Shown here one piece after another: positions 30,202 to 57,965 of a DNA stretch of 64,000 nucleotides. Position numbers and translations under genes: made by a program. Numbering within the stretch: the stretch's first letter is position 1; each line of letters opens with the position of its first letter. Source of the DNA: Candidatus Latescibacterota bacterium (GTDB lineage Bacteria > Latescibacterota > UBA2968 > UBA8231). The DNA lies in assembly GCA_965217585.1 (NCBI GenBank), contig OZ244561.1, positions 1,824,001 through 1,888,000 of the forward strand, read 5' to 3'. The notes under the pieces were generated by a model. That model saw only the letters and a list, made by a program, of their open reading frames with translations, was not told where the DNA came from and searched no databases.

Positions 30202-30234
30202 TAAGAACTTTGCAAAAGCCGCCGGAGTGTTGCG

Positions 30235-32358
30235 ATGATCGGATCGAGTCATTTGCAGCGTTACCTATCAATTATGCTAGGGCTAATCTGGTTCTTTTTT
30301 GAGCCGCTGGCCGCCGTCGAGTCGGTCTCCATCGGCCAAGGCGGCGATTTTGACTGGCGGTTCAACGGCTCGGCCGCCATCAACACGATCCAGGCCGAAT
30401 ATCTCGCGCCATCAGATCCCGACAATATAGGGGCGACGCCCGATTTTCTGCTGGGCAATACCCCCGGTGACCTGCTCGAAATTGACGATCCCGACCCGCC
30501 GCTGAGTATCCATCCCGTCCGCATCCAAGAGTGCCTTGAGGGCACCTGTCCGGAGGCGAATATCGCCGACGCCACAGTGGAGCGAGGGGGCAAGTTCCGA
30601 GTGCCCACCTTTACCTCCTTCTCTCTTCAGTACAAGACCAGTGATTTCGAGACCGACCTAGAGGAGGTCATTTCCAGCCAGCCTGGCGGCGAAGAGGGGG
30701 CAATCGAGTTCAAGAGTCGGAATGCCTTCGGGCAGCTACTTATACTCGACATGGGAGCTCGCTTCGGGGTCAATCGGATCCGTTTCTACCCCCGCGACAC
30801 CGTCCAGAAATCGCCCGGAACTCCCTTTGCCAGTGACTTTCTGAGGGCCTACGAGTCGTTCACCAATGACGGCGTAGACCTGACGCAGGCGGGGAACCAG
30901 ATTTGGGTGCCCCTCAATTCCGAAACCGACAACAAGCAGCCTGTTGTCGACATCCTCGTCGATCCGCCCAGATACGTGCAGTCAATCCGCCTGAAGTCTC
31001 TGACCCAGTTCGAGTTTGAGATCGACGAGATCGAAGTATATGGTCGGGGCTACCTCCCCACTGCCACCTACCTGTCGAATATCTTCGACGCCGGCGAGCC
31101 GGTTGCGTGGATCGACTTGAACTGGGTAGAGGATATAGTCGGCGATCCAGATTTTTCCGGGCTGCAGATACGCACGCGCACGGGTACGGATGATTCGCCC
31201 TTCAGGTTCACCCGCAAGTTGAGGGGCAAGCCCGGCACCGACGAGTTGTTTAGTTCATTGGAAGATACTTCTAGGGACATGACAAGGACCGAATACCAAC
31301 GCTTGCCCCAATTCGACGAGGAAGGTCGCGAGTGGGAGCCCGGCTCTGTGCAGAGCGATTTGGTCAACTGGAGTCCCTTCAGCACGCCCTTTGACGCTGC
31401 CTTTGCCAATGGCCCAAGCAGTGCTATCGTCTCGCCCAGCCCGCGTCGCTACTTTCAGTTTCAGGTGGAGTTTCAGAGCAAGGATCTGGACTCGGCGCGT
31501 ATCCTGCGCTCATTGACCTTCAATTTTTCCCAACCCATTGCCGACACCATCATCGGTGAGATCTTTCCGCGTCGGGCCGAGCCCTCGAAGTCGCTCTCCT
31601 TCGTCTACGCCCTTAGATCAAACATACAGACCCCCGGGGTTCTCGGCTTCGATACAGTGCAGATAGCCACCCAGGCTCGCATCGAGGGCATAGATCGCCT
31701 GGAGCTTCTGGACCGCGACGACCAGCTTCTGGCCGCCCGCGATTTCACCAGCCTTGATGATACACTCCTAGTAGACGGCTTCCAGATTCTCATCGCAGAG
31801 GAGGAGGCCTTTGCAGTGCGCTTTCCACTGATCCGCGAAGACGGCACCCAGTTGAGAATTCACTTCCGCACCAACCTCCTGACCTACAGCACCAATTTTT
31901 CGGCCCATGCCAGCGTTTCAAGCGAGCCTGGAGCCGCTCAGTCAATCACCTCCGGCAATGCGGCATCGCTCGGCCTAGAGGACAATCCCGATTTTTCGGG
32001 TACCACGGTCCTGAGTCCGCAGATTCTGGGCGGCAGATTACTCGCCCAAGTTGCGCTAGTGCCCGACGTCTTCACCCCCAACGGAGACGACATCAACGAT
32101 GAAGTCTCCGTGCGCTACAGCCTGCTGTCCGTGAGCGCACTCCGCCCCGTCAATATCTCGGTATACGATCTCAGCGGCCAGCTCGTACGAGTCCTGCACG
32201 ATACCCCTGAAATTAACGGACGCTACGAAGACAAGTCGTGGGATGGCCGCGACGAGAACGACCAACTCGTCGCACCGGGCGTCTATCTTGTGCGGATCTC
32301 TGTCGAGGGGGACGCCAAAGCCGACGAACTGTTGCGCCTAGTCGCCGTCGCCTATTGA
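30235..32358 (+). CDS. Secreted protein, paralog 1: discoidin-like domain plus C-terminal FlgD-Ig/CTD-like domain ending VAY
   Basis: Signal peptide; DMGARFGVNRIRFYPR, EIEVYG, TRTG...WSPFS...SPRRYFQ, GEIFP, FTPNGDDIND, YDLSG, WDGRD, PGVY, VAVAY-stop. Confidence 0.75.
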   Translation: MIGSSHLQRYLSIMLGLIWFFFEPLAAVESVSIGQGGDFDWRFNGSAAINTIQAEYLAPSDPDNIGATPDFLLGNTPGDLLEIDDPDPPLSIHPVRIQECLEGTCPEANIADATVERGGKFRVPTFTSFSLQYKTSDFETDLEEVISSQPGGEEGAIEFKSRNAFGQLLILDMGARFGVNRIRFYPRDTVQKSPGTPFASDFLRAYESFTNDGVDLTQAGNQIWVPLNSETDNKQPVVDILVDPPRYVQSIRLKSLTQFEFEIDEIEVYGRGYLPTATYLSNIFDAGEPVAWIDLNWVEDIVGDPDFSGLQIRTRTGTDDSPFRFTRKLRGKPGTDELFSSLEDTSRDMTRTEYQRLPQFDEEGREWEPGSVQSDLVNWSPFSTPFDAAFANGPSSAIVSPSPRRYFQFQVEFQSKDLDSARILRSLTFNFSQPIADTIIGEIFPRRAEPSKSLSFVYALRSNIQTPGVLGFDTVQIATQARIEGIDRLELLDRDDQLLAARDFTSLDDTLLVDGFQILIAEEEAFAVRFPLIREDGTQLRIHFRTNLLTYSTNFSAHASVSSEPGAAQSITSGNAASLGLEDNPDFSGTTVLSPQILGGRLLAQVALVPDVFTPNGDDINDEVSVRYSLLSVSALRPVNISVYDLSGQLVRVLHDTPEINGRYEDKSWDGRDENDQLVAPGVYLVRISVEGDAKADELLRLVAVAY

Positions 32359-32443
32359 CCCCACCTCACACCATCCCAATGACAACTCCAGATTGGTACG
32401 TTGTTCCAAATCGCGGGCCTGCGTACCTCGGAGTGATGGAAAT

Positions 32444-34102
32444 ATGAAGATCCCATCGGCAGTGAGACTGCTAATCGCCGTTATCCCGGCTGGGTGTGAG
32501 CCGTCCGAGGATGAGTTAGTCGCCCGGGTTGGGACATATCCGATCACCTCCAACGCGCTGAGGACCTTTGTTGAAGGGCTTCCAGTAGACCTGCGCGTTC
32601 AAGAGACAGGTGATGTCGCTCGCCGCCGTTACCTGCAGGATATGGTCGATCGCTACCTGATGCTCATCGAGGCTCGGGCCCGGGGGTTGGACACCACACA
32701 GGTGATGCGCACGGCGGTCAGCGAAGCAGTCGACAGCCGGGCTCGGAGTCGCTATAGGGCCCGTAAGATGACTTCCACTAAAGAGATTACTCCGCAGGAG
32801 GGGCGTCGGTACTTTGCCAGCGAGGGATATGACCAGGAGCGCAAACTGACCGCTATCCTGCTTAAAAATCGAGCCCAGATCGAAGCGGCATTGGTCGAGC
32901 TGAAGGCGGGAAAAGCTTTCGAGGATATTGCCCAGGCGCAGTCTCTGGACAAGGCGGCGGCGGTAAAAGGTGGTGAATTGGGATGGGTAGACAGGGATAT
33001 GGCACTGCGGCTCTACATCCCGCAGGAAGTCTTCACCGACCTGCCAACCGGGCAGGTTTCAGAGCCTCTGCCGGCGGGCAAACACTGGCACCTAGTCCGC
33101 TTTATAGAGGAGCGACCGACGCAGTATGAGAAGAACCGGCTGGTGATTGCATCCCGCCTTCGCGCCGAGCGCACAAAGCAGCTCTCCGAAGAGCACTTCG
33201 AGCAACTCGAAGCAACCTTCGATATACAGTTGGGAATAGACGGCTTCAAGGAACTGGCAGCGGCCTATCGCCAGAGGACGCCGGAAGTCCTCGCCGACAG
33301 TCCGACTCCACTCTACATATACGACCAGGGCCAGATCAGTGTGGGCCAGGCACAGCAGACGCTGAAGCCCCTGAAAGAGGCCCGCGCCTTGGCTGACGGT
33401 GACCGGGCCAAGGCGATCACCGTTCTGCAAAAATACGTTTTGCGCCCGTTTCTGCTGGAAGAAGCCGCCCGACGCGCAGGTATTTATGACGAGCCCGATA
33501 TCAAGCGTTTTGCAGCTAATTACCGAGAAGATGTTGTCTTGGAAATCTTGAGAAAAGTCGCCATTTCCCAGAGAGTAAAACTGTCTGAGGAAGAGGTGCG
33601 CCAATACTACGACGAGCACCTCGAAATGTTCTTCCACGAAGGTGCGACCTGGGTCGAAGAATTGCTGCTACCCACCGAGGCAGCGGCTCAGGACGCGAGA
33701 AAACAGCTAGAGGCCGGAGCGCAGTTCGAGGCGTTGGCCAGCCTTAGTCTGCGCCCTGGAGCGGTCGGAGTCAAAGCGAAATTTCACTTCCATGCTCTGG
33801 AAAAGGTCCGCTATCCCCAACTGATACCGGCAATTTTAGAAGCGCAAAAAGGTCAGCTCGTCGGACCCCTTAAACTGGAGTCGGGCTTCTCTGTATTCAA
33901 AGTTTTTAAGAGGGAGGAGGGCGCTGTAGAACCCTTCGCCACTGCTAGGCGTAGAGCCCAAGGCCTGCTCCGCATGCAGCGGCAGAAAGGTATGTTTCAG
34001 AACCTGATGGACACCCTGAGAAAACGCCACGCCGACCAAGTCGATATTTTCGAGGATCGACTGCGGGCGGCTCTGCCCGACAGCCTTGTGGGAACTGATT
34101 GA
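32444..34102 (+). CDS. PrsA/SurA-like foldase lipoprotein with two parvulin-like PPIase domains
   Basis: Lipobox-like PAG-C; FEDIAQAQSLD..AVKGGELGW, GQVSEP, WHLVR; second domain FEALA..S, GQLVGP. Confidence 0.8.
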   Translation: MKIPSAVRLLIAVIPAGCEPSEDELVARVGTYPITSNALRTFVEGLPVDLRVQETGDVARRRYLQDMVDRYLMLIEARARGLDTTQVMRTAVSEAVDSRARSRYRARKMTSTKEITPQEGRRYFASEGYDQERKLTAILLKNRAQIEAALVELKAGKAFEDIAQAQSLDKAAAVKGGELGWVDRDMALRLYIPQEVFTDLPTGQVSEPLPAGKHWHLVRFIEERPTQYEKNRLVIASRLRAERTKQLSEEHFEQLEATFDIQLGIDGFKELAAAYRQRTPEVLADSPTPLYIYDQGQISVGQAQQTLKPLKEARALADGDRAKAITVLQKYVLRPFLLEEAARRAGIYDEPDIKRFAANYREDVVLEILRKVAISQRVKLSEEEVRQYYDEHLEMFFHEGATWVEELLLPTEAAAQDARKQLEAGAQFEALASLSLRPGAVGVKAKFHFHALEKVRYPQLIPAILEAQKGQLVGPLKLESGFSVFKVFKREEGAVEPFATARRRAQGLLRMQRQKGMFQNLMDTLRKRHADQVDIFEDRLRAALPDSLVGTD

Positions 34103-35635
34103 GTGCGCCAGATCTTCGCCTGTAGCCTCTGTGGCGCAGCGATCCTTTCCCTGAGTGTGGGATGCGGTCTTGGGCAGGAGCCCGACGGCAGTTCCCCAGA
34201 GCAGGACGCCAGGCGACAGAAAGGCCTCTTGTTGACGGGCAGAGGGCTTCTCTTGCTGCAGCAGGGGCGACCAACCCGGGCGCTGGCCGTTTCCAAGGAA
34301 GCCCAGCAGTTCATTCCAGAGGCACCGGAACCCTACTTCAATATGGGGCTCGCCTACTCTCGTCTCGGTCGCCATGCAGAAGCCATAAAAGCCTTCGAGC
34401 TAGCCCAAGCTCGGGGATCTCCAAATGCCGCCCAGTTTTTCGCTCTAGGCTTGTCGCTGCGCGCCCAGAACCACGATCTGGAGGCAGCTAGCGAGTTTCG
34501 CAAAGCCATAGATTTAGCCCCCGACCGAGCCGACTACCACTATGCTCTGGGTGAAGTGCTCAGGTCCATGAGCGATTTCCCCGGCGCAGTCGCGGCCTTC
34601 GAAACGGCTATCCGGCTCGATTCCACCCACATCGAAGCCCACTTTTACCGCAGTGATCTTCTTGCCCGAGGCCAGCGGCTGGACGAAGCCGAAGCCGGAT
34701 ACAGGCGCACCCTGGCGCTGGATCCGGAGCGGACGGCCACTTATCTGGGCCTGGGCCGACTACTCTCCAAACAGAGGCGTTTTGCCGAGGCCATCGACAT
34801 GCTGCAACGAGCCATCGCGATCAACCCGAAGGGCTCCAATGTCTATTATTTTTTGAGTCAGGTTCAGCGCCAAGCCGGAAATGAACAGGGGGCAGAATCA
34901 GCGCTCGCCACGTTTCAACACTTGTACGCAGTTGAACAGCATCTGGACCAGGGGGACCTATATGCGGTGCGCGGTAAGTGGGAACTGGCCATCGCGGCCT
35001 GGTTGCAGGCTATCGCCGTCGACTCCGCCTCCGTCGATGCCTATATACGGGTGAGTGAGACGCACCTGCGACAGGAAGATTTGGAGGCAGCACTGCCCGT
35101 GTTAAAAAGGGGACTAGCCGTGAGGCCGCAGAATTTGGTCCTGCGCTGCCTGTTGGGCGAGGCCTATCTCGTCGCCGATAATCCGACGGCCGCGGCGCAG
35201 ACATTTGAGCAGGCCCTACGCCAGGATCCGACCTTACTGCGGGCGCTGTATGGGCTCGGACGCGCCGATCTGGCAGCCGGAAATCTCCAGAGCGCTGTTG
35301 CTTGGTTCCGACGAGGTCTGGACATTGATCCAGATGACGTGGAATCGCACTACCACCTCGGACTTGCCTACGTCAGACAAAGGCGCTATGTCGAGGCTCT
35401 GACCTGCTTTCAGCAGAGCGTGGCTATCGACCCGTCCCACGTGCGGGCCCATTACGCCCTAGGCCGATTGCATGTGGAGCAGGCAGCAGATGTCGAGGCC
35501 AGAGCCGCTTTTGCCACAGTCTTGGAACTGGACCCCGATCACTCCAGAGCCCGAGAGGGTCTGGCGCGCCTAGATGAGGGTGGTGATTTGATTGGCCAAG
35601 GTGCTGCGGGAATGCCCGGCGAGGGGAGAAAATAA
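34103..35635 (+). CDS. TPR repeat lipoprotein
   Basis: LSVG-C lipobox; many TPRs (YFNMGLAY, HYALGEVL, HYHLGLAY). Confidence 0.88.
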   Translation: MRQIFACSLCGAAILSLSVGCGLGQEPDGSSPEQDARRQKGLLLTGRGLLLLQQGRPTRALAVSKEAQQFIPEAPEPYFNMGLAYSRLGRHAEAIKAFELAQARGSPNAAQFFALGLSLRAQNHDLEAASEFRKAIDLAPDRADYHYALGEVLRSMSDFPGAVAAFETAIRLDSTHIEAHFYRSDLLARGQRLDEAEAGYRRTLALDPERTATYLGLGRLLSKQRRFAEAIDMLQRAIAINPKGSNVYYFLSQVQRQAGNEQGAESALATFQHLYAVEQHLDQGDLYAVRGKWELAIAAWLQAIAVDSASVDAYIRVSETHLRQEDLEAALPVLKRGLAVRPQNLVLRCLLGEAYLVADNPTAAAQTFEQALRQDPTLLRALYGLGRADLAAGNLQSAVAWFRRGLDIDPDDVESHYHLGLAYVRQRRYVEALTCFQQSVAIDPSHVRAHYALGRLHVEQAADVEARAAFATVLELDPDHSRAREGLARLDEGGDLIGQGAAGMPGEGRK

Positions 35636-35760
35636 CTTACTCGTGAACCGGAATGGTATTACATTCTCCAAAGTCACCGATGGGGTCGAGGTTTCGCGGG
35701 ACGGCCTTGATGAGGAGTAGCTTCTTACCTGCTGGATCTTATAAATGATGGAGGTACCTT

Positions 35761-38421
35761 GTGCGACAACGCGAGTACTCTGTAGCATCCATTCTGTTCT
35801 GTATGGCCCTTGGGGCCCTTCCGATCAGTGCACAGGACTACGGTGCCCGCTTAGGAACCGAAAGGGGTGGAGAAGTCACTTTCGAACCGCAGGGCCCTGG
35901 GGTTATGTTTGGTGCATTGGATCCGGCGGTGCGCCGGTGGTACGTCCCCCAGGAGCTCTATAGAGAATTCGGCTGGAAGCAGTGGGAATACTCAAACTAT
36001 GCCAGAGAACACTATCAGCGTTACGTCGACATCAGCCTAGAAGGCGACTATTTTTACGATCTATATGGTGATTTCGTCGGTCGCGGATGGCTCATTTTTA
36101 ACACCTCCCAGATCCAGCCCGAACAGTTTGGCAGCTCAATCTTCAAGTCCACGAGGTTTTCTGAGTGGTTCTCCGGGCTTCTCATCTCCGCCGACAGAAA
36201 AGGGCAGTACCAATATGCGGTGACGATCAGCAACGAGCTCCGCACCACGCTGACCCCCATGACCTTTTCCAAGCCTCGCTGGGACGGCATCCAGATCGAT
36301 TTCGCCTCGGATGCATACGAATCCACCCTAATCTTTTCGCGTTTGAGCACTCCAGGAGGCTCCAGTACGCGAGACCTCGAGAACCTCGTGACAAACCTCA
36401 CTACACTGCTCGGTGGCCGTTTTACCATCCAGGTGGGGGATTTTGCGACGGTAGGTTTAACCACCGTCAATACCCACCAGTCCAACACGTTGGTCGACGG
36501 CTTCAAGGGCAACCCCATCCACGGCGAGCTGACCATCGACCAGAGAGCGACGATTGGCGCCATCGAAATTGTTCTGCGCGACGATTCCCCTGAAGACGGG
36601 ATCGGGGGGGCGGCCTTTTTTTCTGCCGGCTCCGACATCATCATTACCTATGTAGACGGCAAGGTGGACAGGGGTAAGAATATCCGTTTCGAACCCGTTA
36701 TCCAGGGTGGTTTTATCCGTGAGGGCTTCATCGCCGCCGATGGCACCGAGCAGATAAGCCTGCGCTATGACTTCGACAGTGCAGCCTTTCTCAATCGGGC
36801 AAATGGCACCAAAGAGGAGATCAAAAAGGTCGAGTTTGAGCTCGTTCTGGGCAATGACTACCAGGTGTGGGTGACATCCGACCGACAGTTGAACAGCGCC
36901 TCTACCTCCGTCCTCCTCATGGTGACCCAAGCAGAGGGCAACGTACAGGACAATACCAACCTCAGAGTCGTCAGCTTTGAATACGGTCTGCCTACGGCTA
37001 CCCAGATCTGGGGCACCACCCTTGAACTTAAAGAGGTTTTCGGGTTTAAATTCTACGGCGAATACGACCTGAGCCACAGCTACACAAAATTTCCCAGTAT
37101 AACGCGCAATAGCCACTCTGTTTTCTCGGGCATCAAAGGCGAGCGATCTGCGCCGGCGTGGATGATGAATGTTTCGCGCGTTGATTTTCCCTGGTTCTTC
37201 TTCGGCGAGGCGTACAGCATGGACCCACGCTACAACACCAGTAGCTTCGCTGCTGAGGCCTCCGGGTTTATCGACTACGAGGATCCGCGCGTTTCCACTA
37301 TCGACTTGGTCACCGACAACGATGACCAGGATCGATTCGCCGACGCCATTCGCAGAGATACGCGGAGAGGAGACAATGCCGTTTTTCCCGGCTGGGACGA
37401 GAACAACGACTTTGTGTCCGACTTTAACCAGAACGACAATTCCGTACTGTCGAATTCGACACCGGATTACGAGGAGGCCTTTCTGCGCCATCACGTCGAC
37501 CGGCCGGAATTTCTCTTCGGTATCGATTTGAACAACAATCTTTGGATCGACCGATTTGAGAATGATGATCAGCCGGACTATCCATACAAAAAAGATCGCC
37601 GTGGCTTCAATGTGTATGGAGGCTTGAACTTGCTTGCCGATGTTCAGCTCACGGTCGGGCTGCTGCGGGAAGAGCTGATCTCATCTGATAAGAAGAATCA
37701 TACCAACTACCTGCTGCTCACCATGGATCGCGATATGGCCGAATGGGGACGTCTGCGCTTCTTCGAGTCGCTGAAGTCCGTAAAAGACAATATTGAAGAC
37801 GAACTTCTCCAGTGGCTGCCAAATACGATATTGCGCACCGGAGAGCCGACGCGCTTGCAGGACCCGATTATAGCGCCCGATACCTGGATCAACACGCTGT
37901 GGACAGGACACGACTACTCCAGGGGAGCCCTGCAAGCAAAAAATCTGGTAAAATACAAAATCTATCACCAACGTCTCAACAAAGAAGAGAGAACGCTGCT
38001 CAGTAGGCGTAAACGGGACTACTTCTTCGGCCTTATCAACAAGGCTAGCTACCGCATCGATTGGGGCCGACTGCGAATCGAGCCGCGCTGGAAAAGCGAG
38101 TTCCGCAAGCAGACGCTGGACCTGCTTTCTACCGACAATCGGGAGGAATTGACCGAGATTGGTGGTGTTCTTGTATCCGTACCGTTCCTCCTGCACACTA
38201 CTTTAATGACGGGCATAGAGTACACGTCCTTCAATGATTTCAAGCGCGATTCCAACGATTTCAACGGTATCGCCACGGCGTTTCAGGTCACCAATGAATC
38301 CTCCTATCTGGGGTACAACCTGATTATGCAGGGTGGTGTGAAAATCAACCGCCGAGATTTTAAGGGTCAGGATTCAGACACTTTGACGCAGGGCTTTCTC
38401 ACAATGTACGCCGGGTTATAA
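35761..38421 (+). CDS. 886-aa exported protein, predicted outer-membrane beta-barrel with acidic Ca-binding-like loops
   Basis: GGAGGT RBS plus GTG; signal peptide; runs of amphipathic beta-strands in the C-terminal third; DxDxD-like motifs. The fold is inferred. Confidence 0.6.
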   Translation: MRQREYSVASILFCMALGALPISAQDYGARLGTERGGEVTFEPQGPGVMFGALDPAVRRWYVPQELYREFGWKQWEYSNYAREHYQRYVDISLEGDYFYDLYGDFVGRGWLIFNTSQIQPEQFGSSIFKSTRFSEWFSGLLISADRKGQYQYAVTISNELRTTLTPMTFSKPRWDGIQIDFASDAYESTLIFSRLSTPGGSSTRDLENLVTNLTTLLGGRFTIQVGDFATVGLTTVNTHQSNTLVDGFKGNPIHGELTIDQRATIGAIEIVLRDDSPEDGIGGAAFFSAGSDIIITYVDGKVDRGKNIRFEPVIQGGFIREGFIAADGTEQISLRYDFDSAAFLNRANGTKEEIKKVEFELVLGNDYQVWVTSDRQLNSASTSVLLMVTQAEGNVQDNTNLRVVSFEYGLPTATQIWGTTLELKEVFGFKFYGEYDLSHSYTKFPSITRNSHSVFSGIKGERSAPAWMMNVSRVDFPWFFFGEAYSMDPRYNTSSFAAEASGFIDYEDPRVSTIDLVTDNDDQDRFADAIRRDTRRGDNAVFPGWDENNDFVSDFNQNDNSVLSNSTPDYEEAFLRHHVDRPEFLFGIDLNNNLWIDRFENDDQPDYPYKKDRRGFNVYGGLNLLADVQLTVGLLREELISSDKKNHTNYLLLTMDRDMAEWGRLRFFESLKSVKDNIEDELLQWLPNTILRTGEPTRLQDPIIAPDTWINTLWTGHDYSRGALQAKNLVKYKIYHQRLNKEERTLLSRRKRDYFFGLINKASYRIDWGRLRIEPRWKSEFRKQTLDLLSTDNREELTEIGGVLVSVPFLLHTTLMTGIEYTSFNDFKRDSNDFNGIATAFQVTNESSYLGYNLIMQGGVKINRRDFKGQDSDTLTQGFLTMYAGL

Positions 38422-38434
38422 GGTATAGAAGCTG

Positions 38435-40765: not shown

Positions 40766-40784
40766 TGGTTGCAGGTGAGGGGAT

Positions 40785-42707
40785 TCACGGCTCCCACACT
40801 TCGACGAGCACATTGGCCGCTAGGGGGCCGGGCAGTGTCTGTACCTGCCCCGATGGCCAGCGGACCTCGATCTGTTCGATGGTCGCCGCATTGTCGAGAC
40901 CAAAGTAAAGGGGATAGAGACTTTGGGTAAGATAGCCCGATTTGCCGTCGTGGACTTTGGTGTAGGTCTGTGCACCTGCTTTGACGATGACCACCGCACC
41001 CAGCCCGCCGCGGTTTGATTGGGTGCCGATCAAGCGCACTTTGAGAAAGTGAATGTCTTTTCTGGTGGACAGGTCGCTGATCAGCACCATCGGCTCCGAG
41101 TTGAAGTCGTTGGTGACTATGTCCAGGTCGCCGTCGTTGTCCAGATCGAAGATAGCCGACGAGCGCGAACCCAGCGCTCCCCAGACGACAAAGCACCCTT
41201 TGCGGTTCTTGCAGAGACTGTGATGCTGGTCGTCGTTGGAGCAATCGAGTTCGAACCAGGGTTGGGCAGTGCGCCCATCCCGGCGCGGTTCAACGCCCAG
41301 GATGAATTCGCTGTCCAAGAACCCAACTCCTTTATTGTTCAACAGGAGGGAGTTGATTCCGTAGCGCCAGGGAGAATTCATGCTCGCAGTGATAAAGACA
41401 TCCTCGTAGCCATCGGCGTTGAAGTCTCCCACGCTCAACCCCCAAGGCCAGTAGTTCTCGGCACCGATCTGGTCCGAAATTTCCTCGAAGCGCCCGTTGC
41501 CGGCATTGCGATAGAACGCATTGCCGAAGATACTGTTGCCTCCACTGAGAAGGAACTCTTCTTCCTGTTTGACATCGGCCTTTAGCTTTTCTCGTTCCGG
41601 GCCGATATTCTCGGTCATATCCGAGTGCATGTCGGTTACATAAAGATCCATGTGACCGTCGTTGTTGTAATCGAATACCTTGACCCCCATGGATCCCCAG
41701 GGCGTTTTGGGAAAGACCTGGCGACTCTTCTTGATGAAGTATTGTCCCCGAACATTTTCGTAGTATTGGTCGTTCCCCTGCATATTCAATACATACAGAT
41801 CGGTCCAACCGTCCTCGTTCGCATCAATCGGGGTAGCATCCCCCGTCCAACTGGTATCCTCCAGTTTTACCTCAGTGGTCATGTCGCCAAAGCGCTTGTC
41901 GCCCAGATTCCTGAATAGCAGACTGCGCTCAAAGCGCTCGGGAAAAAGGTGTCCAGAGAAGGCGTCGCTCAAGCCGACGTAATAATTGTATTCCTCTCGA
42001 TCCTGACCGGCAGCATAGTGGGAAGAGGGTATCAGTACATCGCTGGTATAGGTGCCGACGTTGGTCAGGAACAGGTCCAGCAACCCGTCTCGGTCGTAGT
42101 CGAAGAAAATGGCCCCGGAGGAATAGCCTTTATAGTCGAGCCCGGACGACTCGGAGATGTCCTTGAAGCGCTCCTCGCCGTGGTTCTCGAACAGATGATT
42201 GCCTTCCCTGATAGTGGTCACATACAGGTCTGGATCGCCATCGTTGTCGATATCCGCGAACGAAGCGGTTACGCCAATAGGTTCGGCAAGACCCACGCCC
42301 GCAGTCGCAGTCACGTCTTCAAAGGTGCCATCGCCCTTGTTTTTCCACAGTTGATTGCTGCCCACTTGGTTGACAAAGTAAATGTCGTACAGGCCGTCCC
42401 CGTTCACATCGGCGATTGCGAGCCCGTTGCCGTGATCGTAGTGAACCGGTTGCCAGTATTTCCCCGAGTCGTCTACGACCTTGTTGCGAAAGTGGATACC
42501 GCTCCGGGCAATTTGATCGGAGAAATTGAAATGGCAGAAAACCTCGAACTGGTCAATGGTTGCCAGTTGAGCCTGTCTGCGACTTTCGAGCCATGGAGGA
42601 TCGATAATCTCCGGTGGTTCAGCAAGCATCTGTGGCTCTTGCGAGGAAGCTACTTCTAAGGTGGTTGCGAAAAAGGGTATTGCCATCCATATCGGGAGGT
42701 ATTTCAC
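40785..42707 (-). CDS. ASPIC/UnbV (CRTAC1-like) FG-GAP repeat protein
   Basis: GTG42707 with AAAGGA RBS and signal peptide; DVNGDG/DIDNDGD/DYDRDG repeats; SNRGGLGA..SGYLTQS..LYFGL..IEVRWPSG. Confidence 0.88.
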   Translation of the reverse strand: MKYLPIWMAIPFFATTLEVASSQEPQMLAEPPEIIDPPWLESRRQAQLATIDQFEVFCHFNFSDQIARSGIHFRNKVVDDSGKYWQPVHYDHGNGLAIADVNGDGLYDIYFVNQVGSNQLWKNKGDGTFEDVTATAGVGLAEPIGVTASFADIDNDGDPDLYVTTIREGNHLFENHGEERFKDISESSGLDYKGYSSGAIFFDYDRDGLLDLFLTNVGTYTSDVLIPSSHYAAGQDREEYNYYVGLSDAFSGHLFPERFERSLLFRNLGDKRFGDMTTEVKLEDTSWTGDATPIDANEDGWTDLYVLNMQGNDQYYENVRGQYFIKKSRQVFPKTPWGSMGVKVFDYNNDGHMDLYVTDMHSDMTENIGPEREKLKADVKQEEEFLLSGGNSIFGNAFYRNAGNGRFEEISDQIGAENYWPWGLSVGDFNADGYEDVFITASMNSPWRYGINSLLLNNKGVGFLDSEFILGVEPRRDGRTAQPWFELDCSNDDQHHSLCKNRKGCFVVWGALGSRSSAIFDLDNDGDLDIVTNDFNSEPMVLISDLSTRKDIHFLKVRLIGTQSNRGGLGAVVIVKAGAQTYTKVHDGKSGYLTQSLYPLYFGLDNAATIEQIEVRWPSGQVQTLPGPLAANVLVEVWEP

Positions 42708-43058
42708 AGGGGTAATTCCTTTGTTTTGGATTTTGGATTGAGTCCCAATAGAAGTAAAATATGAAAAGTCTTTCCATCTACCAATAATATCTGCAAAGTC
42801 CATTGGGTTTGCCCCGACCGATTGTTTATATTGCTTGAAAACGACAGGTTTGCTCCAAATCGGGGTATTCTGGAAATGCTTCTCATAGGGAATCCCGAAG
42901 AATATCGGCTGAAATTCGGGATTTTTCATTTGCAAGATTTCATCTATGCAACTCGTTGTCGAACAGGAACCTGCCGTTTTCAAGTATATTATCAATACTT
43001 CACTAAATCGGCGACCCATCCTCGGTTCATCCAGGGCAGTTATAGGGAGGACAACTTA

Positions 43059-45179
43059 ATGAGTACACGCCTACTGCTTTGCTATTGTGGCCTGCTCCTT
43101 ACAGCCTCTGTCGCTTCGGGCCTGAGCGAGTACCGGCTCGGCGGGAACGACGGCAATGCTTGGCAGAGCGCCCTGTCCCTTGACAGCGCGGGAGAATACC
43201 TAGTCCTCGACAATAACAACCAGCTACAGAGGACGGTCGTGGTGGGGACGACGACGCACGGTGCCGGCACGGATACGCTGATCGATTTCTCCGATACGTC
43301 TATCCGCCCTCGTTTCATTGAACAGGATGTAAACCTGTCGGTTCTTGGTTCCGGAGATTCGTCAGTGCTGCCATACATCGGCGGCAGAGTACACAGTTCG
43401 ACTAATTGCGCAAATGCCGATTCGGATATTCTCACCATCAGACGAATGTTCGACGGAGACCAGACTACAGCGATGTTCCGGCCCTTCACCCGGCATCCAG
43501 ACGCACCACCGGGCTACTGCGGCGGTTACTGCGAGGGAGTAGGGTGGGGGGTGAGGCAAGCGGCGGTGATCGATTTTCGCGCCGTCGTGCCGGTGAACCG
43601 CATCCGCTTTTACCCGCGCCTGAGCCCGAGCGAAGATGCGCTGCTAATTGAGGAACTCGCCGAGCCCCGTCCCCCGCAGGAGGCGTACGGAGTAGACAGC
43701 TTCTCCGGCAACTTCATAACCGGGTATGAGCTCCGTTCAAGTGACAATACGGTCAAATACAGAAATAGCCCCTGCGATGAAATCGGTCGGCTGACGGGTC
43801 TGCCATGGGTGAGGCGAATGGATCCCCGGTTGGATGTATTAAAAAGCGAACCTGAAAACCTAGATATCGTCGTCGATCTGCATTTTCCTACCCAGTCAAT
43901 CCGCTGGTTGACCTTCCAGGCCTTCGGCGGCAGCACATTTGAGGTCGCCGAGATGGAAGTCTATGGCGAGGGCTTTGTCGAAGAGACGGTCTTTGTCACC
44001 CAGATTCTCGACTTCGGCAAATCGGTAAACTGGGGCAAGCTCCGGTGGGCCGGCGATCAGCCTCCGGGCACGCGCGTGGAGATTCAAACGCGCAGCGGCA
44101 ATACGCCGGATCCAAACCTGTATTACGCCGAAAGTGAAAATCTGGATATCGTCCCCGTTTCCCTGGACGAATACGAGGGCATCAACATTCTCGACCGGCA
44201 GCCGGTAGCTTACGACGTGGCGAACTGGAGTATCTGGTCACCGCCCTACAACTTCGCCGCCGGACTACGCGATTCTTCGTTATCCGCAGAGGCATGGCAA
44301 GACGGCACCCCGATGGTGTCACCGGGGCCTAGCCGCTACCTGCAGGTCCTGGTTCGGTTTCATTCCACCCTTACGACGGCATCTCGGTTGGATCAGCTAA
44401 CGCTGCAATTCGGCGACTCTCCCTCAGCCCAAGAGCTATTCGGCGAGATCTGGCCCATCGAAGTTGAAACCATTGAGCCTACCACTTTTACCTACGTTGT
44501 GCGGCCTAAATTCCAAGAAGGAGACATCGGCTTCGACCGGCTGGAAGTTCTCACCCCCACTCGCGTTGCCCACATTCACTCAGTGAAACTGGGCGGAGAG
44601 GAGATCAATCCCGATCTCTATCCCATCGATGTGGAGGAGGATCGGTTTGTGGTCGCATTTCCCCATCTCGTCGGCCAGGACAACAATCTGGTGCAACTGG
44701 AAGTGGTCTTTGATGCGCCGGTGCTGCGCTATGGCACCGAGTTCCGCGGTTGGGTCTTCAACAGCGAGGAGGCGCGGCCGATCAAACAGCAGGTGAAGCC
44801 AGGCGACGCCACGTTCCGATTTTCCGGCAATATCCTGGCCGTGAGAACACCGCTGGGGGGTGCTCTTCTGGTAGATGTGGAACCGGTACCGGGCATCTTT
44901 TCGCCCAATGGCGACGGCATCAATGAAACGATGACAATTTCCTACAAACTGCGCGAAATTACGGCGGAGCGGCTCGTCTTCCTGCGTATCTACAATCTGG
45001 CCGGCGAGCTGATGTATGAGTCGCCGTCTCGGCTGGTCAAGAGCGGTGAATTCGCTCACGAGTGGGGGGGGCTGGATCGCAACGGCCATCTGGTGTCGCC
45101 GGGCATCTATATCTACGAACTCAGCATTCAGGCTGAGGCAGAAGAGACCAAAATGGGTACATTCGCGGTAGCCTACTGA
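43059..45179 (+). CDS. Secreted protein, paralog 2 (FlgD-Ig/CTD-like C-terminus ending VAY)
   Basis: GGAGG RBS plus ATG43059; signal peptide; VNRIRFYPR, EMEVYGEG, TRSG, WSIWS, SPGPSRYLQ, GEIWP, FSPNGDGIN, PGIY, AVAY-stop. Confidence 0.75.
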   Translation: MSTRLLLCYCGLLLTASVASGLSEYRLGGNDGNAWQSALSLDSAGEYLVLDNNNQLQRTVVVGTTTHGAGTDTLIDFSDTSIRPRFIEQDVNLSVLGSGDSSVLPYIGGRVHSSTNCANADSDILTIRRMFDGDQTTAMFRPFTRHPDAPPGYCGGYCEGVGWGVRQAAVIDFRAVVPVNRIRFYPRLSPSEDALLIEELAEPRPPQEAYGVDSFSGNFITGYELRSSDNTVKYRNSPCDEIGRLTGLPWVRRMDPRLDVLKSEPENLDIVVDLHFPTQSIRWLTFQAFGGSTFEVAEMEVYGEGFVEETVFVTQILDFGKSVNWGKLRWAGDQPPGTRVEIQTRSGNTPDPNLYYAESENLDIVPVSLDEYEGINILDRQPVAYDVANWSIWSPPYNFAAGLRDSSLSAEAWQDGTPMVSPGPSRYLQVLVRFHSTLTTASRLDQLTLQFGDSPSAQELFGEIWPIEVETIEPTTFTYVVRPKFQEGDIGFDRLEVLTPTRVAHIHSVKLGGEEINPDLYPIDVEEDRFVVAFPHLVGQDNNLVQLEVVFDAPVLRYGTEFRGWVFNSEEARPIKQQVKPGDATFRFSGNILAVRTPLGGALLVDVEPVPGIFSPNGDGINETMTISYKLREITAERLVFLRIYNLAGELMYESPSRLVKSGEFAHEWGGLDRNGHLVSPGIYIYELSIQAEAEETKMGTFAVAY

Positions 45180-45472
45180 CCGCCAGATAGCATGGGTGGA
45201 TAATGCTTCAAGCGAAATACTGCCTAAAGGCGACTCTTCCCCGTGCCGGATCAACCTGCGGGCGATACTGACGGGGATGGTGCTGTATTCGGAATGGTCC
45301 TGGGACAGTTTGTGGTGGATGATGACCGGCAATTCGATTTAGCTGACCTGGAAAATATCTTGACAGCTATAATTTTATTATTTAGCGTACTATATAATAT
45401 ATACGGATTAAGAGTAGCTGGTAAATTACCGGCTGAACTCTCTCCATCGTCCTCATCCATGGGAGTTATATC

Positions 45473-46375
45473 ATGCGTAGAAGGACAGCATTGACGCTCA
45501 GCGCGATCATGGTCTTGGCGTTTGCGATATCCGTTTCAGGCCATGTACCTGTGGGCGAGACGTTTTTCGCCGCCCAGTTTCCCGACGAAGCCGTCCCCAG
45601 CATAGATGGTGACCCCAGCGATTGGGACATCGTCCCAGAGACGCCTTATCATATCAGAAATGATCGCATGCAGGGAAGCGACCCGTCTATCGGATTGAGA
45701 GATCCAGGCTCCACCGATCCCAGCGATTTAAGTATGAACAGCGTCATTGGTTGGAATGAAAGTGCCAACAAGGTTTACTTCTTGGTTGAGGTGTTTGACG
45801 ATATCCACAACGTAGATCGCGATGACGTGTCGGTGTTCTGGGAAGATGACGATGTCGAGATCAACTTGAACGGCGACCATACCGGACAGGATGAGGCCAA
45901 TGTGGAAGGCGAGCCGTGGAACAACCAATATTACGGCCTAGTAGTGCCGCCGGTAGAGGGACAGTTTTTCTATCCCCAGCCTGGCCCCGAGTGGTTTCAG
46001 GCCGGCACCGACTGGCTCCAATTCGGCTGGAGTTTCACTGGCGAACAGTTTGGCGAAAGTACCTATTACTACGAGACGGCGATGCAGGTGTACCTCAGCA
46101 TTCCCAGAGTGGAAAGTCCCTCTGAAGATGACGTTGAGATTCTCGACCTCGAAGAGGGCGAAGTCATCCACTTTAGCATCGATATTGGCGACTTCGATGA
46201 GCCGGGCCGGACCTATGACACTTTCTGGTCCGTGAGCGACGACAGAGCCTGTTGCAGCGCCAACTCCGATCTGTTCTTGGCTGAAGTCGATCCTCTGCTT
46301 GAAGAGGCGCTGGCCAATCGCCCCACAGCAGTTGAAGAAGCGAGCTGGGGCCGTATCAAAGCTGCCCACCACTAA
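45473..46375 (+). CDS. Secreted CBM9/DOMON-like protein with C-terminal AVEEASWGRIK tail
   Basis: Signal peptide; PSIDGDPSDW, GWNE...VYF..EVFDD, WEDDDVEI motifs; acidic. Confidence 0.65.
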   Translation: MRRRTALTLSAIMVLAFAISVSGHVPVGETFFAAQFPDEAVPSIDGDPSDWDIVPETPYHIRNDRMQGSDPSIGLRDPGSTDPSDLSMNSVIGWNESANKVYFLVEVFDDIHNVDRDDVSVFWEDDDVEINLNGDHTGQDEANVEGEPWNNQYYGLVVPPVEGQFFYPQPGPEWFQAGTDWLQFGWSFTGEQFGESTYYYETAMQVYLSIPRVESPSEDDVEILDLEEGEVIHFSIDIGDFDEPGRTYDTFWSVSDDRACCSANSDLFLAEVDPLLEEALANRPTAVEEASWGRIKAAHH

Positions 46376-46519
46376 GCTGCATTCTGCCAGCCTGCCGCTG
46401 TAGTCTGGCTCAGGCAGAGTGTTTGTTTTGATCTACCCCCTGTTCCGACCGGCTGGACCACTGGATCGGAACAGGGGGTTTTTTATAGCGTACTGCCAAT
46501 CGTCCGCAGAGGAGGTGAT

Positions 46520-49500
46520 GTGAAACACGCTATCGCCGCACGACAGTCTTGGATATGGATCGCGTTGCTGTATCTGCACACCGGCGTCGGGATCAATGTC
46601 CATCCGGCCGCCGCACAAAGCGGCAAAGGATACCAACTGATTGGCGATCACATCGTCGTCAATGCGCCGTCTGAATGGGTCAACTGGAGTTTGCCACTCC
46701 ACGCGGTCGAGGTCACGGACGAGGGCGTTGCGCCCCATCTGTTTCGCCAGCGCTACAACTTGCTCGACGATCGCGAGACCTTTGTTCGCACACTCCCGGG
46801 GATAAAGCTGAAGAGAAAAGAGCACTTTATTCTCAATGTCGACAGCACCGAGACCCTGGATGTGAGGGGCAATATTATCACCAAGAAGTCGAAGGGCAAG
46901 TCGGTGCCTGTCTGGACCTACCAGCTACGGATGGGTATCAGCCGGGTGGGGTCCAACACAAATGCGGCGGCAAATATACTGGACGGCGATCCCAACACTT
47001 ACTGGGAGCCAGACCCGGACGATCCCATCGACGATTGGTGGGTAGAGGTGGATCTGGGTCGCGTGGTACCCATCGATTCGCTGGTGGTGCAATTCGTAGA
47101 CGAAAAACTGGGGGATCCGTTCGCTAAGTTTCGCCTGCTGACCTCTCCGTGGCAGGTCCCGGTCCTTGAAAAGTCCAGAGACATTGGCTTCGAGCTTTCG
47201 GGTCTGACGACGATACCCAACAAAGATCAACGGCAGTTCGATTTCGCCCTGACGCAACAACGCGCCGATCCGGGATGGACCGGGCAGTTGGTGGAGACCA
47301 TCCGCATTGTAGTCAGCGATACGCGCGGTGGCCGCGGCAGCCTAATCAGCGAGGAAGAGTGGCTGGCGCTAGCCCCCAACGAGCGGGGTGACATCGTCTA
47401 TTTCGCCGTAGACAAGGTGGGGTTTGAAGAGCCTATAGTGGAGGAGGAGAAAAGCGAGGAGAAGGCGGTATTCGAGGCCCTGCCACCGGAACGTCAGGGC
47501 CGCAAGGAATTCTACGTCCGCGAGCGCCCCCGGCTCGCCGACATCGAGGTATGGGGATGGGGCGATAACCTGAGTACAGGCATCATCTCCGGCGGCGGCA
47601 ACCTCACTGTTACCGGCAGCAGCGCCACTAGTCCGGGAGCGGCCTTCGACGGCGACTTCAAATCCATCTTTCAGCACGCCATCCGGGAGAAGATTTCCTT
47701 CATCGAGCGCGGCATCCTCACCATCGACCTGGGCGCGACGTTCTGGCTCGACTCTATGCGGCTGGCCTCAGCTGGCACTGACCAGTCGGAGGGCTACGCA
47801 GTGCGCAGTTCCCTGGGTGACTTCGATACCAACGGTCTGCTGCGCTGGCGAAAATTGAGTCCGCTCATGCGGGAAGACAACACGTTGGAACGCTACAACA
47901 ATATCCTCGACGCCTACGATCCGCCGACAAAAATGAGGCTGTTGGAGGTCGTTCAGCTCAACCCCGTTTCCAGAGGCGGGTACTATCTTGGTCCCAACGT
48001 TTCGGAGTATATGCTGTTTTCAGAGGGCTATGCCGCCGAGGTCGTACTCACCTCGGATTTGATCGAAGTCCCTATTGGCCGCAATTTAGGTGCCATCACC
48101 TGGGAGGCAGAAACACCTCCGGGCACCCAAGTGGAGATCCGCACTCGTTCCGGCGATCAGACCCAGGAAATCATTCGCTATTTTAACGCTACAGGCAGCG
48201 AGCTGACGCTTAAACAGTGGAATAATCTGCTCGGCTCCCTAAAGGGGCCCGTCGATACTTCGCTGGTCGTGGGCACCGACTGGAGTAACTGGAGCCGCCA
48301 ATACGCGCAATCTGGAGACCGGGTGACATCGCCGTCGCGCAAGAGCCTGCTGCAAATCCAGATAAAGCTGAAGACGGAGGATCGCTTTACGGCCGCCGCC
48401 ATCAAATTCGTCGACATTGAGCTGCTCGACCCGGCGGCCGACCGGCTCGTCGCCGAGCTATGGCCTGTTGCGGTGAACGCCGCTGGACGGCTGGACACCT
48501 TCGAGGTCTTCGCGCGGCCCTTCTTTATCGAGAGCCCCGTGCCCGAACGCAGCAGCGGCTTCGACGAGATCCTGCTCAGCTTCTCGGGTGCCGAAATGGA
48601 ACTGCTCGAATTGGATCTCGGCTTTGACGACAACGGCCAGCCCCTGACCTCCTTCCGAGCCAGCGAGCCCGGCTTTGACGGCCTGGAGTTGCTGCAAAAC
48701 CAATCCGATTCCATTCACGTCCGACTACCCAACATCATCCATGCGCTAACTGGCGGCGAGGGCCAGCGGCTCTATCACCGCATCACTGTCGAAGGGGACC
48801 AGGTTCCAACCGCCAGAAACGGCGAGCTGCTGACCAGCGCCACGTGGGGCCTGCTACTGCCCGAAGAGCGGGGCGACCGGCGTTTCTTCCGCAAGTTCGT
48901 CAACGCTAATGGACAGGTCGAGCTAACAGCTATCTCCGAGGACACGTACGACGAGCTGGAGGAGGAACAACGCCTAGGACGCTACTTCCGCATTCTCGTC
49001 GACGGAGGGGGCCAGTTCCCCTTCGCCGCCGGCGGTGACACGCTTGGCCGCAGCGCCCATTCGGCGCTCTCCTTCAGTGCCCGCGGACGTGTTGTCGGCG
49101 AAGGTCCACTCATGCGGCTGCGCTTTGCCTCCCCGGTTTTCGTCAACGGTACCACCCTGGACATGGCGGTGCGCAACACCAACGGCGGTGCTGATCTGGA
49201 GGTCGCTTGGCAGGGCGTCGAGTCGGGTGATGCCACACCTTTGATCGCCAGCGAATCGCTGTCCATTCAGATGCCTCTCGACGCCAGACCGTTGGATGAT
49301 TTCAGCATCACTCCCAATCCCTTTACGCCCAACGGCGATGATATCAACGACCAAGCGAACATCGAGGTTCTCGTTGTCAAACTCAGCGCCGCCCGCGAGG
49401 CCACGGTGCGCATCTTCGACCTAGGTGGCCGACGCGTCTGGGAACAGCAGCAGATGGTAAGCAGCGGCCTCGCCAGCATCGCCTGGAACGGCACCGACAA

Positions 49501-49609
49501 CGGGGGCAACCTCGTGGCACCGGGCATTTACATCTGCCAGTTCAAGCTTGCCGTCGATAACGACAATGCAAATACGGTGCTGTCCAGACTCGTTCACGTT
49601 GCATACTAG
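46520..49609 (+). CDS. Secreted protein, paralog 3 (1029 aa; two discoidin-like domains; FlgD-Ig/CTD-like C-terminus ending VAY)
   Basis: GAGGAGG RBS plus GTG; LDGDPNTYW..WVEVDLG, AFDGD..IDLG, TRSG, WSNWS, ELWP, NPFTPNGDDIND, FDLGG, WNGTD, PGIY, HVAY-stop. Confidence 0.75.
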   Translation: MKHAIAARQSWIWIALLYLHTGVGINVHPAAAQSGKGYQLIGDHIVVNAPSEWVNWSLPLHAVEVTDEGVAPHLFRQRYNLLDDRETFVRTLPGIKLKRKEHFILNVDSTETLDVRGNIITKKSKGKSVPVWTYQLRMGISRVGSNTNAAANILDGDPNTYWEPDPDDPIDDWWVEVDLGRVVPIDSLVVQFVDEKLGDPFAKFRLLTSPWQVPVLEKSRDIGFELSGLTTIPNKDQRQFDFALTQQRADPGWTGQLVETIRIVVSDTRGGRGSLISEEEWLALAPNERGDIVYFAVDKVGFEEPIVEEEKSEEKAVFEALPPERQGRKEFYVRERPRLADIEVWGWGDNLSTGIISGGGNLTVTGSSATSPGAAFDGDFKSIFQHAIREKISFIERGILTIDLGATFWLDSMRLASAGTDQSEGYAVRSSLGDFDTNGLLRWRKLSPLMREDNTLERYNNILDAYDPPTKMRLLEVVQLNPVSRGGYYLGPNVSEYMLFSEGYAAEVVLTSDLIEVPIGRNLGAITWEAETPPGTQVEIRTRSGDQTQEIIRYFNATGSELTLKQWNNLLGSLKGPVDTSLVVGTDWSNWSRQYAQSGDRVTSPSRKSLLQIQIKLKTEDRFTAAAIKFVDIELLDPAADRLVAELWPVAVNAAGRLDTFEVFARPFFIESPVPERSSGFDEILLSFSGAEMELLELDLGFDDNGQPLTSFRASEPGFDGLELLQNQSDSIHVRLPNIIHALTGGEGQRLYHRITVEGDQVPTARNGELLTSATWGLLLPEERGDRRFFRKFVNANGQVELTAISEDTYDELEEEQRLGRYFRILVDGGGQFPFAAGGDTLGRSAHSALSFSARGRVVGEGPLMRLRFASPVFVNGTTLDMAVRNTNGGADLEVAWQGVESGDATPLIASESLSIQMPLDARPLDDFSITPNPFTPNGDDINDQANIEVLVVKLSAAREATVRIFDLGGRRVWEQQQMVSSGLASIAWNGTDNGGNLVAPGIYICQFKLAVDNDNANTVLSRLVHVAY

Positions 49610-49652
49610 CGCTGAGAAGCCTTCTTACAATTTCCGGCGGCTGTCGCGCGGC

Positions 49653-54475: not shown

Positions 54476-54509
54476 AGTTGGCTCCGGTGGGTTGAAGTGT
54501 AGTCGTATC

Positions 54510-57958: not shown

Positions 57959-57965
57959 AAACCCT

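Follow-up and report, generated by a model that had tools for sequence, protein, structure and literature searches.

A 64,000-nucleotide window (bases 1,824,001-1,888,000) of a single-contig, 7.32-Mb Latescibacterota genome was analyzed in follow-up of a sequence-only reading, which had described in it a dedicated export and assembly system for surface proteins ending in the residues VAY. The region is best explained as a rearranged copy of a heavily amplified cell-envelope module that is specific to Latescibacterota and combines three VAY-tailed paralogs (cargo A, B, and C below) with an 886-aa protein predicted to be a large outer membrane (OM) beta-barrel. Judged by their sequences, the cargo tails are type IX secretion system (T9SS) C-terminal domains (CTDs), and the locus is an undescribed add-on to this known secretion system rather than a new system. 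That the barrel is also the cognate OM partner of the cargo, as an anchor and/or a channel, in a surface module resembling a polysaccharide utilization locus (PUL) is in our estimate an even call. Gene coordinates are given as window positions unless genome positions are indicated.

Cargo tails and the type IX secretion machinery

The Pfam model CHU_C, which describes the type-B T9SS sorting domain, matched the tails of cargo A (30235-32358, plus strand), cargo B (43059-45179, plus strand; its Met at 43059 lies inside the open reading frame [ORF] 42822-45179), and cargo C (46520-49609, plus strand) with 30, 39, and 38.1 bits, respectively, all above the 27-bit cut-off, and the same tails also matched the PorU CTD. 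An iterated search of the whole genome retrieved 265 ORFs with this CTD at their C-terminus, namely 168 of the cargo family and 97 others. The genome ORF sets used here and below were crude (the longest ORF from the first ATG, GTG, or TTG, with at least 80 aa), and the family counts may hold a few spurious or split ORFs. The last residue of the cargo-family CTDs was Tyr in 162 cases, Phe in three, and Trp in one, that is, aromatic in 166 of 168, whereas a single protein among the 97 others ended in Tyr and the rest mostly in Lys, Arg, Glu, or Pro. The two groups were also compared using 20 CTDs drawn at random from each and a match threshold of E ≤ 0.01. Nineteen of the cargo-family domains matched CHU_C and one matched Por_Secre_tail, their typical start being FTPNGDG.ND, while 19 of the 20 other domains matched Por_Secre_tail (type A) and began with an NYPNPFNP-type stretch. 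Hidden Markov models (HMMs) built from the two random sets correctly classified 168/168 cargo-family CTDs and 96/97 of the others. In this genome, CTDs of the aromatic-ended class belong to the cargo family alone, and the VAY tail, as far as its sequence tells, is a T9SS CTD of a type-B-like class.

Genes for central T9SS components were detected in the genome as well. The SprA_N model scored 80.3 bits (cut-off 27) in a 2153-aa frame, PorU was found with 627.5 bits (cut-off 420), and beside it lies a PorV-family protein with 239.2 bits in the PorV_fam model (cut-off 90), which reached 160.9 bits in the PorV equivalog model, under the cut-off of 250. The best SprA, PorU, and PorV matches of the entire genome all fall outside the window, whose ORFs were not each scanned against T9SS models. 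Since the cargo tails are CHU_C-type CTDs, and other parts of the genome encode SprA, PorU, and a PorV-family protein, export is explained by a known system, and the proposal of a secretion pathway distinct from the T9SS, which had itself named such an outcome as grounds for giving it up, falls as far as the export step is concerned. Directly downstream of PorU and PorV (genome positions 575259-578000, minus strand), a model named "T9SS-dependent M6-like inactivated metalloprotease" matched with 286 bits, under its cut-off of 600.

The kinship of the three cargo proteins was confirmed. Between cargo A and B, identity is 29% along 596 aa (E = 7e-52), both share 30 to 32% identity with cargo C over the last 166 to 192 aa, and B and C are additionally 26% identical across 213 residues of their middle parts. 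The ordered set of nine motifs that had been ascribed to all three fared less uniformly when it was searched as regular expressions. Eight motifs occur as written in A and B, together with the terminal VAY, but "SP...Q" matches none of the three proteins as typed, its spacing by eye being SP-x5-Q, and two motifs, VNRIRFYP and E.EV[YW]G.G, are missing from cargo C in their typed form (the protein has IEVWGWG), while the remaining motifs are present in it. The AF2 model of cargo A (pLDDT 82.3) is nearly all beta, and its Foldseek matches, with TM-scores of at most 0.17, are multi-Ig/FN3/MG proteins, galactose oxidase, and PorU. Cargo C consists of a discoidin domain (F5_F8_type_C, 40.3 bits against a cut-off of 28.2), a beta-rich middle, and the CTD. 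Neither cargo A nor B has a Pfam discoidin match, though their VNRIRFYP...E.EVYG stretch looks to us, presumably, discoidin-like. All three would then be Sec-exported chains of beta-sandwich or discoidin domains, which, to go by their signal type and the genes present, may reach the periplasm by Sec and cross the OM via SprA with PorV and PorU.

The predicted barrel and its amplified module

The 886-aa protein (35761-38421, plus strand) carries a signal peptide and has no match in Pfam or NCBIfam. Every homologue for which a source is named goes under "hypothetical protein," and Pfam domains are absent from all of them. In an exhaustive profile search of 1.84 billion cluster representatives, 1254 matched at E ≤ 1e-3, whereas the family profile found no relative among PDB sequences (the sole match, a nanobody with E = 0.12, is spurious, and SlpA was not found). 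The AF2 model, built with 50 homologues, reached a pLDDT of 64.7 and a pTM of 0.61 and is made of long beta hairpins, with a confidently modeled beta-sandwich inserted at about residues 267-400 and a disordered, Asp/Asn-rich loop at residues 519-601. Only OM barrels were retrieved with this model, both by Foldseek (MtrB, SlpA, SprA, and TonB-dependent transporters, TM-scores 0.09-0.30) and by VIA (FimD, Z 10.3; PapC, Z 9.4; SlpA, Z 9.4). The earlier view of this protein as a beta-barrel is thereby upheld at the level of structure prediction, and we accept it as a predicted large OM barrel, to which no family was assigned, because its overlap with known barrels is low. The nearest named cluster in the ESM Atlas, DUF6029 (0.89), was kept as a lead only, and no sequence link to a known family was confirmed. 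The loop holds the most conserved stretch of the whole barrel family (DNDDQD, WDENND, NQND, D.NNN, and END..PDYPY), and these Asp/Asn motifs are invariant even in paralogs that are 23 to 27% identical to the 886-aa protein; by its sequence, it looks like a calcium-binding loop.

The barrel family comprises 80 ORFs of this genome, 54 of them close to the 886-aa protein (at least 426 bits) and two of them fragments (262 and 680-701 aa), and is distributed over 48 loci. The genome also holds 173 cargo-family ORFs and 45 paralogs of the CBM9-like protein described below. A barrel gene is found no more than 10 kb away from 138 of the 173 cargo genes, compared with 17 of the 97 genes for other CTD proteins, and 17% of the genome bases fall within that distance. 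Antigenic-variation cassettes were considered but set aside, because each barrel paralog resides in its own full locus and the paralogs are 36 to 66% identical. The distant barrel subfamily (23-27% identity) forms tandem arrays of three barrel genes, for example at genome positions 3752202-3760726, 4386437-4397201, and 7032218-7042853, often beside a TPR protein of about 1090 aa and a single cargo-like gene.

The same genes recur together in other genomes, so that the co-localization expected by the sequence-only reading is borne out both by the 48 loci of this genome and by 77 related loci from elsewhere. Among the latter, the barrel and the cargo were each present in 76, a membrane/TPR protein in 68, a peptidyl-prolyl isomerase (PPIase) in 65, and the CBM9-like protein in 43. 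The membrane/TPR gene is listed directly 3' of the barrel gene in 68 of the 77 loci, and a cargo C gene stands directly upstream of the barrel gene in 58 (counted from the gene orders). The usual order is PPIase, C, barrel, membrane/TPR, A, B, (barrel), CBM9-like, relative to which the copy in the window is rearranged. Furthermore, the distance matrix of the barrels correlates with those of their neighbors, with r of 0.86 for A (34 pairs), 0.71 for C (39 pairs), 0.80 for the CBM9-like protein (18 pairs), and 0.60 for the PPIase (28 pairs), values that none of 1000 permutations reached. From these correlations, we infer that the modules duplicate and diverge as units.

The distribution of the module was followed in 150 other genomes of the phylum, grouped by family (f1-f14); related genomes show lineage patterns here and are not independent tests. 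In f1, the barrel and the type-B-like CTD were found in 63/63 genomes each, and the cargo-A profile and SprA in 62/63 each. In f2, f3, and f4, none of the barrel, the cargo-A profile, and the CTD matched (0/30, 0/19, and 0/2 genomes for each), whereas SprA was detected in 29/30, 19/19, and 2/2. Most genomes of f5, f6, f9, and f11 to f14 likewise have matches to the barrel and to the CTD, and the cargo-A profile has no match in f5 or f14. Of the 93 further genomes sampled that match the barrel, no more than seven are without a SprA match, and those seven are 64 to 96% complete. Barrel, cargo, and CTD class thus occur together across Latescibacterota families, as had been anticipated, and since the T9SS, represented by SprA, is also present where the three are absent, the module is an accessory riding on the T9SS. 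Several public contigs of metagenome-assembled genomes (MAGs) with near-identical modules are labeled Gemmatimonadetes, Bryobacterales, or Woeseia, and one homologue is labeled Myxococcota. These labels may reflect binning or an older taxonomy, because the names attached to the family are otherwise exclusively Latescibacterota.

All nine ORFs of the region exist at the given coordinates, according to the ORF list and the translations, although the co-oriented run described in the sequence-only reading is interrupted by one of them, a minus-strand FG-GAP/ASPIC gene (40785-43019; FG-GAP_3 157.3 bits, UnbV_ASPIC 54.3 bits) that the reading did not mention. Upstream of the barrel gene, the PPIase (32444-34102, plus strand; the ORF opens at 32393, and Met 32444 is the likely start) has two separate parvulin-type domains of the SurA/PrsA-like kind, as had been claimed (Rotamase_2, 85.8 bits against 27; Rotamase, 51.5 bits against 21.7). 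It is followed by a TPR protein (34103-35635, plus strand; TPR_2 202.5 bits), and both have lipobox-like N-termini when read by eye (IPAGC and LSVGC, respectively), in agreement with their description as lipoproteins. The PPIase has 44 paralogs in the genome, 32 of them within 10 kb of a barrel gene. The protein encoded directly downstream of the barrel (38435-40765, plus strand) is a polytopic membrane domain (about residues 1-455) fused to TPR repeats and had been called a GT-C/TPR glycosyltransferase. Its TPR repeats are its sole Pfam matches, but the GT-C part is backed by no HMM: residues 1-462 have no Pfam match even at E ≤ 10, and PDB searches returned TPR proteins only. In the ESM Atlas, all 30 of the 30 named nearest clusters carry PMT_2 (0.98 and 205-213 shared features in the rows listed), so the PMT_2/GT-C likeness is a lead from language-model features.

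The exported CBM9-like protein (45473-46375, plus strand) owes its label to a weak match, as CBM9_1 scored 19.4 bits in it, under the cut-off of 23.4, and matched 11 of 22 orthologues at E ≤ 0.01 (best 3.7e-6); among PDB sequences, it has no relative. Two histidines, H24 and H112, are invariant in the 22 orthologues, H24 standing directly after the predicted A-x-A signal-peptide cut, and a small-x-small-His pattern occurs within the first 70 residues in 33 of the 45 genome paralogs. An N-terminal His combined with a second conserved one may hint at the copper "histidine brace" of proteins like lytic polysaccharide monooxygenases. The protein ends in a conserved TAVE..SWGRIK tail. The pattern TAVE..SWG.IK plus 0 to 12 residues was found in 62 called genes of the genome, 33 CBM9-like and 29 of other exported families, the latter including a tandem array at genome positions 6837388-6852960, and 29 of the 33 CBM9-like carriers, versus 8 of the 29 others, have a barrel gene no more than 10 kb away. 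From its sequence, this tail looks like a second, unrecognized C-terminal sorting or attachment signal.

The remaining genes around the module include a polytopic membrane protein with DUF6785 and DUF6784 (26155-28272, minus strand; Pfam 422 and 98.5 bits, 11 hydrophobic segments in a hydropathy scan). This family numbers 78 paralogs in the genome; a barrel gene is no farther than 10 kb from 36 of them and no farther than 20 kb from 54, the genome background at 10 kb being 17%. Its copies are about as many as those of the barrel (78 versus 80), and no mention of DUF6785 was found in the open literature. Two more FG-GAP/ASPIC proteins are encoded on the minus strand, one at 28116-29756 (FG-GAP_3 165.8 bits, UnbV_ASPIC 77.2 bits) and the other, which also carries TPR families and flanks the module, at 49653-52640 (156.1 and 74.3 bits); 56 ORFs of the genome are best assigned to this family, 24 of them within 10 kb of a barrel gene. 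Farther out on the same strand, an S15 X-Pro dipeptidyl peptidase (52796-54553) also flanks the module, and a heparinase II/III-like protein (55409-57988) has a type-A-like T9SS tail (Por_Secre_tail 26.3 bits, cut-off 27). Other recurrent neighbors of the barrel genes are long TPR proteins and a lipoprotein family of about 250 aa, with 21 of its 24 copies no more than 10 kb away. Sugar-catabolic enzymes recur there as well, and the loci repeatedly contain members of the GFO/IDH/MocA, enolase-superfamily, and aldo-keto reductase groups. Finally, contigs from the RNA libraries of four metatranscriptome runs (two studies), with 95 to 99% likeness, cover 28 to 30 of the 30 bins of window positions 30001-50000, and one contig of 3.5 kb spans the CBM9-like gene and cargo C. 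They hint that close strains occur in these samples; contigs in RNA libraries neither prove transcription nor rank genes.

The role of the barrel

We regard the barrel as a candidate partner of the cargo because the genome combines 168 type-B-like cargo CTDs with 80 linked barrels from a new family, and because PorP/SprF was not detected in it. In the search for PorP/SprF across the whole genome, TIGR03519 gave no match (the control genomes were silent too), and PF11751 gave none at E ≤ 0.1. If this partnership exists, the barrel would receive cargo with type-B-like CTDs and hold them at the cell surface, as the small PorP/SprF barrels do in Bacteroidota, and it might in addition let captured substrate through to the inside. 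Periplasmic help with folding or assembly could come from the double-parvulin and TPR lipoproteins, and the PMT_2-like/TPR membrane protein may be a glycosyltransferase that acts in the periplasm on the module's proteins.

Several observations weigh against such a partnership. The evidence for contact between barrel and cargo is nowhere direct, and the distance correlations would also be expected from whole-locus duplication alone, so they do not prove contact. The barrel is about 900 aa long, three times the size of the PorP/SprF proteins (about 300 aa), and has no sequence likeness to them. Its model is of moderate quality only (pLDDT 64.7), the TM-scores of 0.09-0.30 are low, and the VIA Z-scores fall in the commonly seen range. 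Thirty-five of the 173 cargo genes are more than 10 kb away from any barrel gene. Barrel and CTD are discordant in f10 (barrel 12/13, CTD 1/13) and f7 (barrel 1/1, CTD 0/1), where the barrel matches listed are distant (best E 1e-28 to 1e-74) and CTD or cargo matches are few or none. As for the secretion system, the NCBIfam type-B model TIGR04131 stayed under its 35-bit cut-off in the tails of A, B, and C (21.9, 16.7, and 23.8 bits), GldK gave partial matches only (best 80.6 bits against 350), and the models of GldL, GldM, and GldN had no match in the genome or in the control genomes, a silence that is no proof of their absence, so a complete canonical T9SS is not demonstrated. A complex prediction that joined residues 25-886 of the barrel to residues 925-1029 of cargo C, its CTD, both entered as alignments, gave an ipSAE of 0.00 twice, with controls that did not fold, and the result counts neither for nor against contact.

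Among the alternatives, the most serious is that the module captures nutrients in the manner of a PUL, with the barrel mainly acting as a channel that imports oligomers independently of TonB, the discoidin and CBM9-like proteins, once exported by the T9SS, binding substrate at the surface as SusD or surface glycan-binding proteins do, the DUF6785/6784 proteins carrying products across the inner membrane, and the CTD class having no special tie to the barrel. PULs of Bacteroidota are likewise many and diversified, as are the roughly 48 loci found here. The discoidin domain of cargo C, the CBM9_1 matches in half of the orthologues, the recurrence of sugar-catabolic and DUF6785/6784 genes in the loci, the excess of 80 barrels over 25 Plug-domain receptors in the genome, and the heparinase-like T9SS enzyme and S15 peptidase flanking the window's locus all speak for it. 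The absence of any Plug or TonB-receptor match in the barrel, even at E ≤ 1 and in a library that does find the window's own TonB receptor, and the absence of a glycoside hydrolase among the sampled recurrent families (10 representatives annotated) speak against it, and it gives no reason for the restriction of aromatic-ended CTDs to these cargo proteins. We consider it a minority view as a replacement for the partner role, though the two are compatible and do not exclude each other. A bolder combination of both, to which we likewise give only limited credence, is that in Latescibacterota the PorP/SprF shuttle has been replaced by barrels of about 900 residues, each receiving two or three cognate cargo proteins by their aromatic-ended CTDs and holding them, together with the CBM9-like protein with its His-1, as a surface "utilisome," while the barrel imports substrate and hands it to the DUF6785/6784 inner-membrane protein; this would amount to a T9SS-built analogue of SusCD with about 50 loci per genome.

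A structural coat, with the barrel as an abundant SlpA-like envelope protein and the cargo as a variable S-layer-like or adhesin layer, whose many diverged copies would serve surface variation against phages or grazers, or host interaction, instead of nutrient capture, strikes us as improbable. SlpA structures do rank second, fifth, and seventh in the Foldseek search and reach a Z of 9.4 in VIA, three of seven distant barrel paralogs show SlpA_C at E 8e-4 to 9e-3, and cargo A, which lacks enzyme domains, looks like a chain of Ig/FN3 type and counts an archaeal S-layer protein among its matches. These SlpA_C matches, however, amount to 14.9-18.3 bits against a cut-off of 35, the 886-aa protein itself has none, no SLH domain was found, SlpA is missing from the PDB sequence-profile results, and the arrangement of the paralogs, each in a full locus of its own, is unlike cassette-type variation. 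Least probable of all is the self-contained, T9SS-independent pathway of the sequence-only reading, taken here to consist of an usher-like barrel translocon, a PPIase chaperone, and the VAY-ended strand as the signal: although ushers are the best VIA fold matches of the barrel, a dedicated periplasmic folding catalyst occurs in 65 of the 77 related loci, GldL, GldM, and GldN are silent, and the aromatic C-terminus sets the cargo apart from other CTD proteins, the tail is more than an end motif, being a full domain of about 100 aa that matches CHU_C and FlgD_ig, SprA, PorU, and PorV are encoded in the genome and nearly all barrel-bearing genomes have SprA, the usher Z-scores come from 231-287 residues aligned at an rmsd of 5.8-6.0, among generic porins, and the locus has no Pfam usher or PapD-like match.

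Comparison with known systems

The module appears to be either a set of T9SS cargo with a cognate OM partner or a PUL-like locus, in both cases built on an undescribed barrel family. No publication on Latescibacteria and type IX secretion, nor on the module itself, was found in the open literature, subscription journals being outside the coverage. If the barrel does partner type-B-like cargo, post-translocon T9SS sorting can be solved by a family unrelated to PorP/SprF, and T9SS biology would extend beyond Bacteroidota. The specificity of recognition could also be studied on the many cognate pairs of CTD and barrel that the module naturally provides. Should the modules serve to capture polymers, Latescibacterota would have in them their main apparatus for acquiring substrates; for this uncultured phylum, a 2015 genome study assumed non-specific porins (PMC4454575).

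Four known systems resemble the module in part. Chaperone-usher systems (FimD/PapC) share with it the top VIA fold matches and a periplasmic folding helper encoded alongside, but here the helper is a parvulin PPIase and the cargo are multi-domain T9SS substrates, not pilins; none of the nine locus proteins has a usher or PapD-like Pfam match, and the likeness is at the level of fold (Z 10.3). Envelope barrels of the SlpA/OmpM type (Deinococcus SlpA, PDB 8ae1/7zgx) are likewise large, rank among the best structural matches, and are echoed by the weak SlpA_C matches in three of the seven distant paralogs; the 886-aa protein differs from them in having no SlpA_C or SLH match, no coiled coil, and no PDB sequence match, and the scores of its paralogs are under the Pfam cut-off.

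Bacteroidota PULs, which are built on SusC/SusD and surface glycan-binding proteins, are like the Latescibacterota modules in forming dozens of diversified loci that combine a large OM barrel and surface binding-type proteins with sugar-catabolic genes nearby. Here, however, Plug and TonB-receptor domains are absent from the barrel, T9SS cargo take the place of surface lipoproteins, and no SusD homologue was detected among the locus proteins scanned; neither regulators nor glycoside hydrolases were identified in the core. The 886-aa protein and seven distant paralogs gave no Pfam match to Plug or TonB-receptor domains at E ≤ 1, while the TonB receptor encoded at 247-2340 of the window scored 159.8 and 39.1 bits in the same library.

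The closest parallel is provided by the pairs SprB-SprF of Flavobacterium johnsoniae and PG1035-PorP of Porphyromonas gingivalis. According to two reports, type-B cargo of Bacteroidota are secreted and anchored by PorP/SprF barrels encoded next to them (PMC9143113, PMC12618676), and 12 type-B substrates are given for F. johnsoniae in the latter (PMC12618676). The Latescibacterota module shares with these pairs a CHU_C-type CTD set apart from type A, a linked OM barrel gene, and SprA, PorV, and PorU encoded elsewhere. No barrel of the PorP/SprF family was found near the cargo, the linked barrel having no NCBIfam match and, besides its size, an inserted beta-sandwich and an Asp/Asn-rich loop that distinguish it from that family. 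Compared with SprB-SprF, there are 168 type-B-like cargo proteins and 80 barrels in one genome, an aromatic end in 166 of the 168, and a lineage that lies outside Bacteroidota.

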